In this document: in pieces, positions 1 to 5,154 of the stretch
Layout of the letters: every line of letters begins with the position of its first letter
Numbering within the stretch: position 1 is the stretch's first letter
DNA from: a virus
Taxonomy: Duplodnaviria; Heunggongvirae; Uroviricota; Caudoviricetes
Strand: one strand, 5' to 3'
Virus record (IMG/VR): IMGVR_UViG_2802429228_000005
DNA length: 5,154 nt
Notes under the pieces: generated by a model
What the model saw: the letters and a program-made list of their open reading frames with translations, nothing else
Database searches by the model: none
What the model was told of the DNA's origin: nothing
Made by a program: the position numbers and the translations under genes

Positions 1-1968
1 TCGAAGAACGCGGCGAAAACCTCAGAAACGAATGCAGCTAACAGCGCACAGGCAGCAGCGGCCTCACAGACTGCATCGGCAAACTCCGCGACAGCAGCCC
101 AAAAATCAGAAACCAACGCGAAAAATAGCGAAACAGCCGCAAAGACGAGCGAAACCAACGCGAAGTCCAGCCAGACGGCAGCGAAAACCAGCGAAACGAA
201 TGCCAAAGTCAGTGAAACTGCGGCGAAAAACAGCCAGGCTGCAGCAGCTGAAAGCGAGAGCGCAGCAGCCGGTTCTGCGACTTCAGCAGCTGGATCAGCA
301 ACTGCTGCGGCTAACAGCCAGAAAGCTGCGAAGGCGAGCGAAACTAACGCAAAGTCCAGCCAGACGGCAGCGAAGACCAGCGAAACGAATGCCAAAGCCA
401 GCGAAACTGCGGCGAAAAGCAGTCAGGATGCAGCAGCCGAAAGCGAGAGTGCTGCAGCTGGTTCTGCAAGCGCGGCGGCTGCTTCTGCCACTGCATCAGC
501 TAACAGTCAAAAAGCAGCAAAAACCAGTGAAACCAACGCAAAGGTGAGCGAAACAGCGGCTGCGAACTCAGCGAAAGCATCCGCTGCAAGCCAGACAGCA
601 GCTAAAGCAAGTGAGGATGCAGCCAGAGAGTATGCAAGCCAGGCTGCGGAGCCGTATAAACAAGTTTTGCAGCCGCTTCCCGATGTGTGGATACCGTTTA
701 ACGATTCACTGGATATGATTACGGGCTTTTCGCCGTCATATAAAAGGATTGTTATTGGCGACGATGAAATAACAATGCCTGGCGACAAGATTGTAAAGTT
801 TAAACGCGCATCAAAAGCAACCTATATTAATAAATCTGGTGTGCTGACAGAGGCTGCCATTGACGAGCCACGATTTGAACGTGATGGCCTGCTTATTGAG
901 GGGCAAAGAACGAACTTCTTCCCGAACAGTACAGACCCTTTGAAGTGGAATAAGTCAACTTCACTGGACGTTACAGAAACAGGCACAGATAGTTTCGGTT
1001 TTAATTATGGCCGGTTTGTCGTACAGGATTCGATTGTTGGCACAAGTAAAGCGCATACCATTATAGGGCTGTATACAAGTACCGGAGGGGTTGATACTTC
1101 AGGTGACGAAAAGTATGTAACTATATCCTGTCGGGTAAAAAGTGAAGTTGATAATATCGCCGTTCGTATTTTATTTGAACATTATGATGGGGAAGTAAGG
1201 ACATCAATAGGAACAGCAAGCCTGAACCTTACCACCCGCATAATTAGCAAGACGGGTCAGACAAGCCGTGTTACAGCAAGGTCTGTTAAGGATGATGCAA
1301 CTGGCTGGATATTTTTTGAGGCTACATTAAAAGCAGATACAACAGAAAATACGGTTGGTGGTTTCGTCCAGTATTCTCCGGATACAGGTCAGATGGTGGC
1401 ATCAGGGGATTATCTCGATGTAACCACTCCACAGATTGAGGCTGGTACAGGCGCATCATCTTTTATTGTTACGGGGACGGCACCGGCAACGCGGGCAAGC
1501 GATATGGTGACAGTCCCAATCAAGAATAACCTTTATAATCTTCCTTTTACGGTTCTTTGTGAGGTACATAAGAACTGGTATAAAACGCCAAATGTAGCGC
1601 CGCGTGTTTTTGATACCGGCGGTCATCAAACCGGAGCGGGGATCGTAATGGGGTTTGGTTCATCAGGTGGGTACGACGGTTTTCCGTATTGCGATATAGG
1701 TGGTTCAGACCGACGAATAAATGAAAATGCCGGGCTGGAAAAAATGGTTATGGGGATGCGTGTAAAGTCAGATCAGTCTACGTGCTCAGTAAGTAACGGG
1801 CGTATATCCAGCGAAACAAAAACCACATGGTCATATATTCAGAACTCCGCAATTATCCGTATTGGAGGCCAGACTACAGCCGGGTTACGCCATTTATTTG
1901 GTCATATCAGGAATTTCAGAATATGGCACAAGGCATTGACTGATGCTCAGATGGGGGAGTCAATCTAA
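1..1968 (+). CDS. Side tail fiber protein, 3' portion (5'-partial, gene starts upstream of the window)
   Basis: Frame 1 is open from nt 1 to the TAA at 1966-1968; the first in-frame start (GTG 544) is internal, and the upstream codons continue the same repeat pattern, so the ORF-track call 544..1968 is a truncation artefact. The N-terminal part is Ala/Ser/Thr-rich with reiterated S-E-T-N-A-K and S-Q-T-A-A-K motifs typical of phage fiber shafts. The C-terminus (...IRIGGQTTAGLRHLFGHIRNFRIWHKALTDAQMGESI) matches the C-terminal signature of concanavalin-A/LamG-like jelly-roll lectin domains used as receptor-binding tips. Confidence 0.85.
   Translation, partial: SKNAAKTSETNAANSAQAAAASQTASANSATAAQKSETNAKNSETAAKTSETNAKSSQTAAKTSETNAKVSETAAKNSQAAAAESESAAAGSATSAAGSATAAANSQKAAKASETNAKSSQTAAKTSETNAKASETAAKSSQDAAAESESAAAGSASAAAASATASANSQKAAKTSETNAKVSETAAANSAKASAASQTAAKASEDAAREYASQAAEPYKQVLQPLPDVWIPFNDSLDMITGFSPSYKRIVIGDDEITMPGDKIVKFKRASKATYINKSGVLTEAAIDEPRFERDGLLIEGQRTNFFPNSTDPLKWNKSTSLDVTETGTDSFGFNYGRFVVQDSIVGTSKAHTIIGLYTSTGGVDTSGDEKYVTISCRVKSEVDNIAVRILFEHYDGEVRTSIGTASLNLTTRIISKTGQTSRVTARSVKDDATGWIFFEATLKADTTENTVGGFVQYSPDTGQMVASGDYLDVTTPQIEAGTGASSFIVTGTAPATRASDMVTVPIKNNLYNLPFTVLCEVHKNWYKTPNVAPRVFDTGGHQTGAGIVMGFGSSGGYDGFPYCDIGGSDRRINENAGLEKMVMGMRVKSDQSTCSVSNGRISSETKTTWSYIQNSAIIRIGGQTTAGLRHLFGHIRNFRIWHKALTDAQMGESI
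148..525 (+). repeat. In-frame tandem direct repeat, 189-bp unit (63 codons), two full copies (148-336 and 337-525) with partial, more diverged copies on both sides (about 1-147 and 526-600)
   Basis: Copy 1 translates SETNAKSSQTAAKTSETNAKVSETAAKNSQAAAAESESAAAGSATSAAGSATAAANSQKAAKA and copy 2 SETNAKSSQTAAKTSETNAKASETAAKSSQDAAAESESAAAGSASAAAASATASANSQKAAKT. They are near-identical at nucleotide level (e.g. aagtccagccagacggcagcgaa[a/g]accagcgaaacgaatgccaaag in both). A third unit begins at 526 (SETNAKVSETAAANS...). Confidence 0.85.
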
Positions 1969-2249
1969 TGAAAGATTTAACACTCAAATTTGAAGACAGG
2001 GCCGACTTTTCGGCCTTTATGGATAGCACTGGCTATTATGATGACGAGTCGATGCAGGATGATATTCTTATTGACGTGATAGGTAACGTGTACAAAGAAA
2101 CCGGAGAACTGACTGAAGATGGCGAACCGGTATGTGTTAAGGAAGACGGATATTTTGTAAACGTGCGCATCATTAATGATGTGAAAACACCGTCATTATT
2201 CGATGAATACGCGGTTGCTGTTGAGCATCAACTTCGTGGCTGGATGTGA
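1968..2249 (+). CDS. Hypothetical small acidic protein (93 aa) translationally coupled to the upstream fiber gene; possible fiber-associated chaperone or adaptor
   Basis: Its ATG (1968-1970) overlaps the fiber stop TAA (1966-1968) as TAATG. A GGGGAG Shine-Dalgarno lies at 1953-1959. I count 22 Asp+Glu against 8 Lys+Arg (net about -14). It sits between two fiber genes. I recognise no family motif. Confidence 0.65.
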   Translation: MKDLTLKFEDRADFSAFMDSTGYYDDESMQDDILIDVIGNVYKETGELTEDGEPVCVKEDGYFVNVRIINDVKTPSLFDEYAVAVEHQLRGWM

Positions 2250-2258
2250 GGAAGGAAA

Positions 2259-3299
2259 ATGGCTACATCGACAGTAATTCCTGATGATATCAAAACGCTA
2301 AAATCCGACGTTAGCAAATTAAAAACCGATCAAGGAAGCTACGCAACAAAATCATATGTAGACAGCAAAGATGAAACCGTTGGTGACTGGTCTGCTTCAT
2401 GGTATCAGCAGGTATTGCCAACTAGCGGAGCTATATTTGGGAGAAAACTCCGCTCAACTCACCGGACGGCAGGTGTTGAGGATGCGTATTGCGAACTATA
2501 CCTCAAAAAATGGATAGACAGTCCAGGTAACGCAATGGCGCGCCTTAACCTGAACGATAACGGGACAAACATTTGCTGGGACTTTACCAACCTTTATGGC
2601 GGTACGATGATTTTTCCCGGTGACAGCGGATACCTCAAAATGGGTAACTGCCTTATGTCATACAGCAAGCGTGGAAGTAACGCGCTTATTAAATTTGATT
2701 ACACCGACACATTACAGATCAAATATGCTAATCATGGGTCAACCATGACATTAAACACACAGGGAACCGCTCACGCTGGCGTAACAACTCGACTATGGGG
2801 CAATTCTAGCCGTCCGGTTGTTTATGAAGTTGGCGTAGATGAGGCTCTGTATATGTTCTACGCACAGAAAACTACCAGCAATACCTACGAATTAACGGTT
2901 AACGGCGCGTGCAATGCAAGTGCATTTAATCAAGGCTCTGACCGGGATCTGAAAGACAATATTCAGGTGATAGATAATGCAACCGACCGCATTCGTAAAA
3001 TGAACGGCTATACATACACGCTTAAAGAAAACGGTATGCCTTACGCTGGTGTTATTGCACAAGAAACCCTGGAAGCCATCCCCGAAGCCGTAGGGTCTAT
3101 GATGAAATATCCAGACGGCGGGAGTGGATTAGATGGAGAAGAAGGTGAACGGTATTACACTGTAGATTATTCTGGTGTTACTGGCTTGCTTGTTCAGGTA
3201 GCCAGAGAGTCAGACGACAGAATAACAGCACTGGAAGAAGAAAACGCAGAATTAAGACAAAGATTATCTGCAATTGAGGCGGCGCTTGCGTCTAAATAA
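2259..3299 (+). CDS. Tail fiber / tailspike-like protein (346 aa) with C-terminal intramolecular chaperone auto-processing domain (peptidase S74 type)
   Basis: Strong RBS GAGGAAGGA (2248-2256) ahead of ATG 2259. Residues 227-280 (GSDRDLKDNIQVIDNATDRIRKMNGYTYTLKENGMPYAGVIAQETLEAIPEAV) match the conserved S-D-x-x-L-K-x-N-I ... G-x-I-A-Q-E ... P-E-A-V core of the intramolecular chaperone domain of endosialidases and T5 pb1-type fibers. The C-terminal heptad-like stretch ITALEEENAELRQRLSAIEAALASK is the coiled-coil end usual for that domain. Confidence 0.85.
   Translation: MATSTVIPDDIKTLKSDVSKLKTDQGSYATKSYVDSKDETVGDWSASWYQQVLPTSGAIFGRKLRSTHRTAGVEDAYCELYLKKWIDSPGNAMARLNLNDNGTNICWDFTNLYGGTMIFPGDSGYLKMGNCLMSYSKRGSNALIKFDYTDTLQIKYANHGSTMTLNTQGTAHAGVTTRLWGNSSRPVVYEVGVDEALYMFYAQKTTSNTYELTVNGACNASAFNQGSDRDLKDNIQVIDNATDRIRKMNGYTYTLKENGMPYAGVIAQETLEAIPEAVGSMMKYPDGGSGLDGEEGERYYTVDYSGVTGLLVQVARESDDRITALEEENAELRQRLSAIEAALASK
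2937..3299 (+). other. Predicted intramolecular chaperone (S74) domain; the conserved Ser227 codon (tct 2937-2939) marks the expected autoproteolytic site
   Basis: The domain boundary is inferred from motif onset at G-S-D-R-D-L-K-D-N. In characterised members this module is released after trimer folding. Confidence 0.7.
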
Positions 3300-3306
3300 T
3301 ATTAAT

Positions 3307-3328
3307 GGGCCGAGCGCCCCGTTTTATT
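3307..3328 (+). terminator. Weak intrinsic terminator or attenuator candidate downstream of the S74 fiber gene
   Basis: A 4-bp all-GC stem (GGGC 3307-3310 pairing with GCCC 3316-3319) with a 5-nt loop is followed by C then GTTTTATT. The stem is short, so termination would be partial at best and the downstream membrane-protein gene is probably co-transcribed. Confidence 0.25.
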
Positions 3329-3341
3329 GGGTAGGATGAAA

Positions 3342-3629
3342 ATGGATATAACACCTTTCCTTCATGCTCTTTGTGCTGTGGCTGCGCAGCTACTGATTGG
3401 TCTTTTTACCGGGAACTGGGCTTACGGAGCGATAGCCGGTTGTACGTTCTTCATTGCGCGTGAACACACCCAGGCAGAATATCGCTGGATTGAAATGTTC
3501 GGGCATGGCAAGCGTATGAATATGCCGTGGTGGGGCGGTTTTGATCCACGTGCATGGGATGTGGCAAGCCTGATGGATTTTGCTGTGCCGGTGGTGGCGT
3601 GTCTGCTGATCTGGATGTTGATCCGTTAA
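3342..3629 (+). CDS. Small hypothetical inner-membrane protein (about 95 aa, 2-3 predicted transmembrane segments); accessory (moron-like) gene
   Basis: The ORF track opens at TTG 3327. ATG 3342 is the more plausible start because AGGA (3333-3336) sits 5 nt upstream; ATG 3336 is also possible. Hydrophobic stretches FLHALCAVAAQLLIGLFTGNWAYGAIAGCTFFIA and VASLMDFAVPVVACLLIWMLI flank a polar W/G/P-rich loop (RWIEMFGHGKRMNMPWWGGFDPRAW). I cannot assign a family. Confidence 0.6.
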   Translation: MDITPFLHALCAVAAQLLIGLFTGNWAYGAIAGCTFFIAREHTQAEYRWIEMFGHGKRMNMPWWGGFDPRAWDVASLMDFAVPVVACLLIWMLIR

Positions 3630-3630
3630 A

Positions 3631-3679
3631 TATAAAAAGTAAAAAGCCGCAGTAACTTGTCATGATAGGATACTGCGGC
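3631..3679 (-). terminator. Rho-independent terminator candidate for the minus-strand dinI-like (and int read-through) transcript
   Basis: A perfect 9-bp inverted repeat, GCCGCAGTA (3646-3654) and TACTGCGGC (3671-3679), encloses a 16-nt loop. Read on the minus strand the stem is followed immediately by TTTTTACTTTTTATA (complement of 3631-3645). On the + strand there is no U-tract after the stem, so it is not an efficient + strand terminator. The loop is longer than typical. Confidence 0.45.
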
Positions 3680-3746
3680 TGGCTGGTTAACTTTCGATAG
3701 TGCGAGTATTGAATGATTTCCAGCCGTTACCGATTTTACGTGTTAA

Positions 3747-3995
3747 TTAGTGAACAAACCACTCGTCAGCAGACTCCCAGGTATCTTTCAGAGTTTCCTG
3801 AACAAAAGTTTTAGCTGAATCTTTATCGGCGGTGCGCGTAACAGAAAGGCCATCGTTGCTGGTGGCTTTTACGATCACCTCTACATCGTCATAACGTTTA
3901 CTGATGCGTCGGGTTAATTCTTCCTTTAACGCATCCACAGCACCGGTTGGCATTTTAGTCATTTTTTCTTTGGCTATGCAGATTTCAATACGCAT
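3747..3995 (-). CDS. dinI: DinI-family protein (82 aa), SOS-inducible RecA modulator homolog
   Basis: The translation [82 protein letters not shown] aligns along its length with E. coli DinI as I recall it (MRIEVTIAK...P.GA.DAL..EL.RRI...LSV...QETWESADDWFV). SD AGAGGGA lies 5 nt upstream of the ATG (minus strand). Two LexA boxes sit in its promoter. Confidence 0.88.
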
Positions 3996-4008
3996 AAAAG
4001 TCCCTCTA

Positions 4009-4028
4009 TACTGTGTTTGTATACAGTG
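4009..4028 (-). promoter_or_regulatory. LexA operator (SOS box), promoter-proximal, overlapping the likely transcription start region of the dinI-like gene
   Basis: The + strand reads TACTGTGTTTGTATACAGTG, with CTGT at 4011-4014, 8 nt, then ACAG at 4023-4026. It matches the gammaproteobacterial LexA consensus TACTGT-N8-ACAGTA at 19 of 20 outer plus core positions. Confidence 0.8.
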
Positions 4029-4030
4029 TT

Positions 4031-4060
4031 ATTTTTAACTGTATGGATAAACAGTGTCAA
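4031..4060 (-). promoter_or_regulatory. Sigma70-type promoter for the dinI-like gene
   Basis: On the minus strand: a perfect -35 TTGACA (complement of 4055-4060), a 17-18 bp spacer, then TAAAAAT (complement of 4031-4037) as the -10. The ATG follows 36 nt downstream. The integrase stop codon TGA (4057-4059, minus strand) is embedded in the -35 hexamer. Confidence 0.6.
4037..4056 (-). promoter_or_regulatory. Second LexA operator (SOS box), lying in the spacer between the -35 and -10 of the dinI-like promoter
   Basis: The + strand reads AACTGTATGGATAAACAGTG, with CTGT at 4039-4042, 8 nt, then ACAG at 4051-4054. Its centre is 28 bp from the first box. No other CTGT-N8-ACAG occurrence was found by eye anywhere else in the window. 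Confidence 0.75.
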
Positions 4061-5154
4061 GAGGTCTTATTTCTGCTCTTTTGGAGCTCTTCAAAACGAT
4101 TATGTAAAGATTTCGGATACAGTTCGGTATATACCTGCCATAGCACGTTTAATGAACGATGCCCTGTAACTTGGGCGACTTCCTCAATACTAAAACCAGC
4201 CTCAAATAAGCGACTTGCCCCTTCTCTACGCAAATCATGGTATCGCAGATCTTTAATACCTAATTTGCTTCTTACCCTCTGAAATCCCGCAGTAACAGAA
4301 GTGCTGTTATATGGAAAAATGAATTCCGATTTTTGGGGCTGTCGTTGGACGATATCCCAGGCTTCCCCAAGCAAGGCTACTTTCATGTGGTTGCCTTCCT
4401 TTTTGCGTGGATCTTTCCTGTCTCTTACGAGTATAGATTTTTGTTCCTGGTCGAGATCTTCCCATCGTAACCGGCATACTTCTCCGATTCGCATACAGGA
4501 CCACACAGAAAATTTGAGGATATCAACGAACGGAATTTTTGAGCATTTATGTGTAGATCGTTGTTGAAGACCTTCAATGAGCATGTCCAGTTCATCAGAT
4601 GCCGGTCTACGATTACGACGGTTTGATTTACCAATCAAACCAAGTTTAAGTAGATATGGACGAGCACTTTTCGCCGGGTTTGATGTGTAATTAATTCCGT
4701 ATACAGGTTTGGCCGCATCCAGAACACTGCCAAGATAACTAACATCGTGGCTGACTGTTGCTGGACCTGCACCAGCGTTGTTTCTTAGCCTACAATGTTC
4801 AATTACGTCATTTTCTGTCAGTTCGGATAGTTTGATCGCGGAGATGTCACTATCCATAAGCAGTTCCAGCACATATCTTTTAGTACGACCTGCTTTACCT
4901 CCGGCATTTGGGTCATTTAAATATTTGTGTAGTAAGTCACGGACTGTAAGTCCGTCAACTGCATTTGATGATGGAATGCCATATAGATCTAATTCCATCA
5001 CTTTCTGTGTACCCCATGTTTTGGCATGGGCATGTTTAGGGAATGTTTTGCTTTCCCTGTAAGTGATAACACCTTTTTCTTTGATAATCACATTACAGCG
5101 ATAGCGTGGTGTGCCATCGGATTTTAGTCGTTTCTCTATGTTATAGTACGCCAT
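4057..5154 (-). CDS. int: Phage integrase, tyrosine site-specific recombinase (365 aa as read; start codon at the window edge, so the true N-terminus may lie beyond the window)
   Basis: C-terminal catalytic motifs are visible: CMRIGEVCRLRWEDLD (box I Arg), RYHDLRREGASRLFEAG (His-x-x-Arg box II) and VTGHRSLNVLWQVYTELY (His ... catalytic Tyr). The basic N-terminal region is consistent with an arm-binding domain. It is oriented convergently to the fiber genes. Confidence 0.88.
   Translation of the reverse strand: MAYYNIEKRLKSDGTPRYRCNVIIKEKGVITYRESKTFPKHAHAKTWGTQKVMELDLYGIPSSNAVDGLTVRDLLHKYLNDPNAGGKAGRTKRYVLELLMDSDISAIKLSELTENDVIEHCRLRNNAGAGPATVSHDVSYLGSVLDAAKPVYGINYTSNPAKSARPYLLKLGLIGKSNRRNRRPASDELDMLIEGLQQRSTHKCSKIPFVDILKFSVWSCMRIGEVCRLRWEDLDQEQKSILVRDRKDPRKKEGNHMKVALLGEAWDIVQRQPQKSEFIFPYNSTSVTAGFQRVRSKLGIKDLRYHDLRREGASRLFEAGFSIEEVAQVTGHRSLNVLWQVYTELYPKSLHNRFEELQKSRNKTS

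Follow-up and report, generated by a model that had tools for sequence, protein, structure and literature searches.

A dinI-like gene at the integrase end of a lambdoid prophage: a probable self-contained, LexA-repressed unit for a paralogue of DinI

Why does a phage carry a DinI-family gene next to its integrase, and does such a gene belong to the functions of lysogeny or does it form a unit of its own? The question is raised by a stretch of viral DNA of 5,154 nucleotides (the window, hereafter), in which a sequence-only reading had recognized a phage-borne DinI-family gene immediately downstream of int and had considered it, because of this position, as part of the lysogeny module. The two genes concerned are the following.

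3747..3995, minus strand: dinI-like coding sequence, ATG start, 82 codons plus stop

4057..5154, minus strand: tyrosine integrase gene, 365 aa (Pfam Phage_integrase, 75.1 bits), which is context and lies outside the dinI-like transcription unit

The placement is as described, since the dinI-like ORF lies downstream of int on the same strand, with a gap of 61 bp. The other flank is occupied by plus-strand tail-fibre genes, one of which carries a Peptidase_S74 chaperone domain. The int-dinI block is 97-98% identical to that of phages mEp460, SKA5 and phiSTEC1575-Stx2k, and the same block is found in a prophage of E. coli AR_0085, with int abutting the host dusA gene; identity between AR_0085 and the window is 100% over 3630-4100 and 98.7% over 2238-5154. 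Judged by the flanking tail-fibre genes and by the near-identical loci in mEp460 and in E. coli prophages, the locus is phage-derived, as had been proposed. GC content gives no clear contrast (0.438 for the dinI-like gene, 0.423 for int and 0.448-0.512 for the genes on the opposite side). The dN/dS ratio of the dinI-like gene, calculated against four homologues with identity down to 60%, is 0.08-0.24; this indicates purifying selection, so that a chance ORF is ruled out.

The integrase appears, from the AR_0085 locus (L002 7614-8651), to be dusA-targeting; a family of integrases with this target has been described (PMC4482086). The attachment site would in that case be located upstream of int, past the end of the window, which coincides exactly with the int start codon. 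On the tail-fibre side, plus-strand frame 1 is open from 1 to 1968 and the side tail-fibre gene is cut by the left edge of the window; Ala/Ser/Thr/Glu-rich repeats (AAKTSETNAK...) occupy the first ~600 bases of this gene, and an apparent ORF of 171 aa at 32..547 was discarded as an out-of-frame artefact of this repeat. Two small plus-strand ORFs are also present. The first (1968-2249, 93 aa), located between two tail-fibre genes, matches PHROG 1361 (unknown function) with 152.8 bits and has no match in Pfam, NCBIfam or PADLOC; from its position, a role in tail-fibre assembly or as an accessory protein of the fibre is suggested. The second (3327-3629, 100 aa, or 95 aa in RefSeq), which separates the tail-fibre genes from the dinI cassette, was judged hydrophobic from its sequence and matches PHROG 1443 (unknown function) with 194 bits, again with no Pfam, NCBIfam or PADLOC match, and it may be a second cargo gene. 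PADLOC gave no defence or anti-defence match for the DinI-like protein either.

Assignment of the product to the DinI family is supported by profile, alignment and fold. The protein matches Pfam DinI (PF06183) with 70.9 bits, above the cut-off of 24.2, covering profile positions 1-63 of 63; it also matches PHROG 189, named 'RecA filament binding protein DinI', with 108.6 bits, a match that covers only positions 71-149 of 151, the profile reaching about 70 positions further on the N-terminal side. Alignment with E. coli DinI (PDB 1GHH/7YWA) is end to end, residues 1-81 versus DinI 1-79 (E=3.7e-13), with 38 identical residues among the 78 aligned (49%). The AF2 model has moderate confidence (pLDDT 72.7) and consists of a single domain of about 80 aa, with strands at 2-8, 39-45 and 51-55 and helices at 19-34 and 59-80, that is, the beta-alpha-beta-beta-alpha topology of 1GHH. 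Foldseek comparison of this model with the PDB returned DinI alone among the significant structural matches (1GHH, TM 0.77; 7YWA, TM 0.75/0.78), the next match having E=0.08. Comparison with DinI-family proteins had been suggested as a check on the sequence-only reading, and both the sequence and the structure comparison support the DinI fold.

The protein is named 'DinI-like family protein' in RefSeq, and orthology to the chromosomal dinI was considered and ruled out. Indeed, the score against NCBIfam NF007893, the equivalog model of chromosomal DinI, is 73 bits, below the cut-off of 111, and the pyrC-dinI-bssS context of K-12 is absent at the window locus, where the flanks are phage tail-fibre genes and a phage integrase. 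Score and genomic context together thus make the window protein a paralogue, and not the orthologue, of chromosomal DinI.

The residues through which DinI contacts RecA have been defined by cryo-EM of DinI on the RecA filament, combined with mutagenesis, and fall into two sets (PMC9926225). The first is a hydrophobic pocket formed by L13, L21, W71, W77 and F78, which takes in F203 of the RecA L2 loop; the second is an acidic patch, E24, E69 and D76, opposite RecA K232/R243/K245 (PMC9926225). The equivalents in the window protein are M15, L23, W73, W79 and F80 for the pocket and E26, D71 and E78 for the patch, so that all eight positions are kept, five identical and three with conservative replacements. 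The acidic C-terminal helix is also kept, the net charge of the last 20 residues being -4 versus -5 in DinI, while the whole protein is less acidic (-2 versus -5). This lower acidity, together with the score under the equivalog cut-off, indicates that affinity or specificity for RecA may differ from that of DinI.

Some relatives depart from this pattern. In the homologue of phage BP-4795, ORF85 (L086 248-496; 60% identity), an Arg replaces the contact Trp equivalent to DinI W71 (QEARETADDWF); the next genes downstream encode type III effectors and LexA box A, described below, is lost, and from its sequence ORF85 may be a functionally diverging copy. Furthermore, in rare E. coli variants of 108-112 aa (P0001, P0003) a stretch of 26-30 residues spanning the beta2-beta3 region (DKDSAKT[RYDD]...) is duplicated in tandem and in frame.

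The 61-bp gap and the region that follows the stop codon contain the elements listed here.

4055..4060, minus strand: -35 element TTGACA, overlapping the int stop codon TGA (4059..4057)

4037..4056 (core 4039-4054), minus strand: putative LexA box A, CACTGTTTATCCATACAGTT, filling the promoter spacer

4031..4037, minus strand: -10 element TAAAAAT, from the promoter scan

4009..4028 (core CTGT-N8-ACAG at 4011-4026), minus strand: putative LexA box B, CACTGTATACAAACACAGTA, between the -10 element and the ribosome-binding site

4001..4007, minus strand: Shine-Dalgarno-like AGAGGGA, 5 nt ahead of the ATG, read from the sequence

3631..3680, minus strand: terminator-like hairpin, with a 10-bp stem (3680..3671 / 3654..3645) and a 16-nt loop, followed by UUUUACUUUUU

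The paired LexA boxes, passed over in the sequence-only reading, are the most informative feature of the locus. Perfect CTGT-N8-ACAG motifs occur twice in the window, both within the 61-bp gap, against 0.07 expected; when the whole window was shuffled with preservation of dinucleotides, none of 200 shuffles gave two. Agreement with the 20-mer LexA consensus, given in place of the heterology index, is 15/20 for box A and 16/20 for box B, the centre of the latter being 23 nt from the ATG. The relaxed motif CTG-N10-CAG yields four further matches at 218-506, which were rejected as LexA-like sites since they have GC-rich spacers and lie in the Ala/Ser/Thr/Glu-rich coding repeats of the tail fibre. 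The predicted promoter is sigma-70-like (TTGACA-N18-AAAAAT, 10/12 consensus matches), and a promoter is annotated at the equivalent place in the mEp460 record.

At the other end of the unit, the hairpin has an RNA folding energy of -30.1 kcal/mol (z = -3.98), and none of 200 shuffles folds equally well. A scan for consensus terminators found none, since it permits loops of at most 8 nt and would miss a loop of 16 nt. No minus-strand ORF of at least 20 aa is present from the dinI-like stop codon to the hairpin. The absence of such an ORF and the folding of the hairpin suggest that the gene is monocistronic, and it appears to have a predicted promoter, operators and a terminator-like element of its own. 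In the RefSeq/PGAP annotation, an 81-bp 'capsid protein' pseudogene fragment, with an internal stop and a missing N-terminus, is placed on the plus strand at ~3670-3750 (L002 6041-6121); it covers the hairpin together with the final bases of the dinI-like gene, and is probably either an artefact of annotation or a very small remnant.

Conservation of these elements was followed by a tblastn ladder through sequenced phages and then in eight fetched loci. A protein search of viral contigs had returned 80 loci, all 99-100% identical, which shows prevalence and is uninformative for conservation. Eleven loci were compared, namely the window, mEp460, VT1-Sakai, PhiR12_2, BP-4795, two Klebsiella phages, YeP3, Gifsy-2, an Aeromonas phage and K-12 dinI. 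A CTG-N10-CAG box is centred 23-29 nt upstream of the start codon in 10 of the 11; in the remaining one, YeP3, the box lies ahead of the preceding co-oriented ORF. A LexA box is thus found ahead of the dinI homologue or of its operon at every locus (11/11), K-12 included. The tandem-box promoter is kept in mEp460 and in PhiR12_2, whose protein is 71% identical; VT1-Sakai has a degenerate box A and BP-4795 has lost it. The promoter/operator region of PhiR12_2 (L085 182-316) is nearly identical to window 3996-4060; from these sequences, either the regulatory region would be better conserved than the coding region, or recombination would have replaced it independently of the gene.

When the DNA of five loci is aligned, the -35 hexamer marks the start of homology, which in three of the four relatives extends as far as the stop codon and no further. 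The upstream neighbour is int in the window and in mEp460, and attL within yehV in VT1-Sakai; among 20 evenly sampled E. coli loci, an integrase is listed under the match in only 7. As regards the features by which morons are recognized, the gene has its own predicted promoter and hairpin, homology breaks at the edges of the unit and the flanks differ. Since homology begins at the -35 hexamer and the neighbours vary, the gene, on this comparison of sequences, is an autonomous cassette, or moron, near the prophage end and not a component of the int module. Membership in the lysogeny module, which had been deduced from position, is therefore not supported, given the predicted promoter, LexA boxes and hairpin that belong to the gene itself.

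The cassette is widespread. Promoter plus gene, at a coverage of at least 80%, are found in 1,698 of 5,426 complete E. coli genomes (31%), with up to 7 copies per genome and 5-6 in the sampled O157:H7 strains. A tblastn census detected homologues in 133 of 50,697 phage records, mostly from Stx-converting and lambdoid coliphages and in part from phages of Klebsiella, Salmonella, Yersinia and Aeromonas. Most of these homologues already carry a dinI annotation: in the mEp460 record a 'DinI-like protein' is annotated, and in the GenBank entry of VT1-Sakai H0001 is a 'DNA-damage-inducible protein I', with a 'putative SOS box' and a promoter at the equivalent position. A LexA site has also been reported ahead of a DinI-like gene of a Serratia phage, in a paper that cites LexA regulation of the PhiKO2 homologue (PMC7556043), and an effect of DinI copies on prophage induction was proposed earlier (PMC8456039).

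Taken together, the operator sequences and the conserved contact residues identify with high confidence an SOS-regulated, DinI-family RecA binder, both RecA binding and LexA occupancy being predicted from sequence. We consider it likely that the locus is a self-contained, LexA-repressed transcription unit (moron) encoding a DinI paralogue that would act on RecA filaments, and that it is carried, at the integrase end, by a lambdoid prophage of the mEp460 type that integrates at dusA; LexA control in vivo, RecA binding and any effect on induction are drawn from analogy with E. coli DinI and the Gifsy homologues. In an undamaged lysogen, host LexA would occupy both operators, one in the promoter spacer and the other just downstream of the -10 element, keeping the gene off. 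After DNA damage, RecA-ssDNA filaments would trigger the self-cleavage of LexA, the promoter would become active and a monocistronic mRNA would be produced, ending at the hairpin and its U-tract. The pocket of the product (M15, L23, W73, W79, F80) would then accept RecA F203, with E26, D71 and E78 facing K232/R243/K245, and the protein would occupy the filament groove that is also used by LexA, UmuD and CI-type repressors.

The net effect would be a larger cellular pool of DinI and stabilized filaments, and competition with slowly cleaved substrates, such as UmuD and the S24-type phage repressors, would delay induction and SOS mutagenesis or raise their threshold. Lambda CI and UmuD do use the same RecA groove and L2-loop site as DinI (PMC9926225); competition with cleavage of the repressor and of UmuD is thus the natural expectation. 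Moreover mEp460, which has an identical protein, possesses an HTH + Peptidase_S24 repressor, of the RecA-cleavable type; it was taken as a proxy, the immunity region of the window phage lying outside the window. The S24 repressor in mEp460 and the groove common to lambda CI and DinI make a tuning of the induction threshold by the phage DinI plausible by analogy. However, the action of DinI depends on its concentration, filaments being stabilized when this is moderate and inhibition prevailing when it is high; whether induction would be damped or favoured is therefore not predictable, and our confidence in any particular effect is low. The sole genetic test made in prophages, in phages that rely on antirepressors, was negative (PMC3121763).

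An opposite outcome has to be weighed, in which the phage DinI stabilizes the filaments, prolongs the SOS signal and repressor cleavage and thus locks in induction. DinI lengthens and stabilizes RecA filaments, whose formation has been described as occurring 'with the assistance of DinI' (Gao et al., PMC9926225), the residues required for this stabilization are conserved in the window protein, and the predicted LexA boxes would make the gene SOS-induced by design. [quoted passage not shown]

The same negative deletions would suit a gene that serves the host, allowing the lysogen to survive DNA damage better, through less SOS mutagenesis or lethality, for instance with quinolones, and with little involvement of the phage switch. 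The moron anatomy with its varying neighbours and the high prevalence, up to 7 copies per genome, would agree with cargo of this kind, and a viral-region DinI-like gene is among the gene groups linked to the emergence of quinolone-resistance mutations in E. coli (PMC10575684). This association is correlative, however, the function is already supplied by the chromosomal dinI, and the literature searched yielded no survival phenotype for the prophage DinI class; a benefit of this type is, on balance, unlikely.

It could also be supposed that the protein binds RecA like DinI and adds nothing measurable, hitch-hiking at a recombination-prone prophage end; besides the Gifsy deletions, the location of the cassette in a mosaic region, by int, att and tail fibres and with varying neighbours, is what a passenger would show. 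The dN/dS of 0.08-0.24 maintained across homologues down to 60% identity, the promoter and operators conserved where the protein is just 71% identical, and the retention of the RecA-contact residues all argue for selection on function, and they make a redundant passenger quite improbable. Finally, LexA-controlled antirepressors linked to dinI are known in 186, PSP3, Fels-2 and the Gifsy phages (PMC3121763) and the PHROG 189 profile extends ~70 positions N-terminal of the matched part, but the delivery of a phage-repressor inactivator by the window unit, as by 186 Tum or the Gifsy operons, is improbable in the extreme and was discarded, because the protein is a DinI domain alone (residues 1-81 versus DinI 1-79) with no N-terminal extension, no minus-strand ORF of at least 20 aa lies between the stop codon and the hairpin, and the repressor of mEp460, which carries the identical gene, is of the self-cleaving S24 type and can dispense with an antirepressor.

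The LexA-repressed unit acting on RecA filaments remains the preferred reading. If phage DinI copies modulate the RecA coprotease, the inducibility of Stx-converting and lambdoid prophages after antibiotic or oxidative damage would be affected, as would SOS mutagenicity in lysogens, with clinical relevance for EHEC. A more speculative extension, which we hold to be rather unlikely, is that the 82-aa paralogues at prophage ends, each under a promoter tightly repressed by LexA through two operators and numbering up to 7 where prophages are abundant, as in O157:H7, jointly constitute a dose-dependent governor of the RecA filament. If this were true, each added prophage would enlarge the SOS-induced DinI pool and shift the threshold and timing of S24-repressor and UmuD cleavage, with consequences for Stx-phage induction, for cross-talk and competition among co-resident prophages and for SOS mutagenesis.

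Comparison with named relatives places the locus within a well-populated group. E. coli DinI (b1061) has 81 aa versus 82 in the window protein; the two share the beta-alpha-beta-beta-alpha fold (TM 0.77) and the C-terminal motif TWESAD-WFV, and in both genes a LexA box precedes the ATG by 23-29 nt. K-12 dinI has, however, one CTGT-N8-CCAG box, whereas the window gene has two with a perfect core, and it lies between pyrC and bssS, while the window gene is in a prophage. The gene itself recurs in described phages, as mEp460_021, phage cdtI gp30, VT1-Sakai H0001, CP-1639 and the Stx-phage dinI, with 95-100% protein identity to the window; like the window gene, they sit between the tail-fibre region and the prophage end, with the same promoter/operator arrangement, except for the degenerate box A of VT1-Sakai. 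In this last phage the neighbours also differ from those of the window, the dinI homologue adjoining attL in yehV and being followed by a YkgJ-like ORF.

The dinI homologues of the Salmonella phages Gifsy-1/2/3 are, like the window gene, DinI-family genes of lambdoid prophages with a LexA box, and for them SOS induction has been shown experimentally: they head LexA-controlled operons and accumulate after mitomycin C (Lemire et al. 2011, PMC3121763), and the three are induced 4.6-23-fold by nalidixic acid in Salmonella (PMC8072944). They differ in several respects, since the proteins have 77 aa and ~42% identity to the window protein, the LexA box is single, the genes map to the nin region, with the replication genes on one side and Q on the other, and their operons include the antirepressor (gfoA/gftA) and irsA, whereas the window gene is, as far as the sequence indicates, monocistronic. 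The Gifsy phages also use antirepressors and not RecA-cleaved repressors (PMC3121763). Tum of coliphage 186 is LexA-controlled, as predicted for the window gene, and its C-terminal half is DinI-like (PMC3121763). It is, however, a protein of 146 aa with an N-terminal antirepressor half, an extension that the window protein does not have. Salmonella MsgA is a small DinI-family paralogue. A LexA box precedes its gene, whose SOS induction amounts to 3.4-fold (PMC8072944). Thus the gene, its SOS box and the hypothesis of a damping of induction are all already known, and interest now lies in an experimental test of how prophage DinI paralogues act and not in discovery; the locus is a typical representative of a known arrangement, and not a new type of system.
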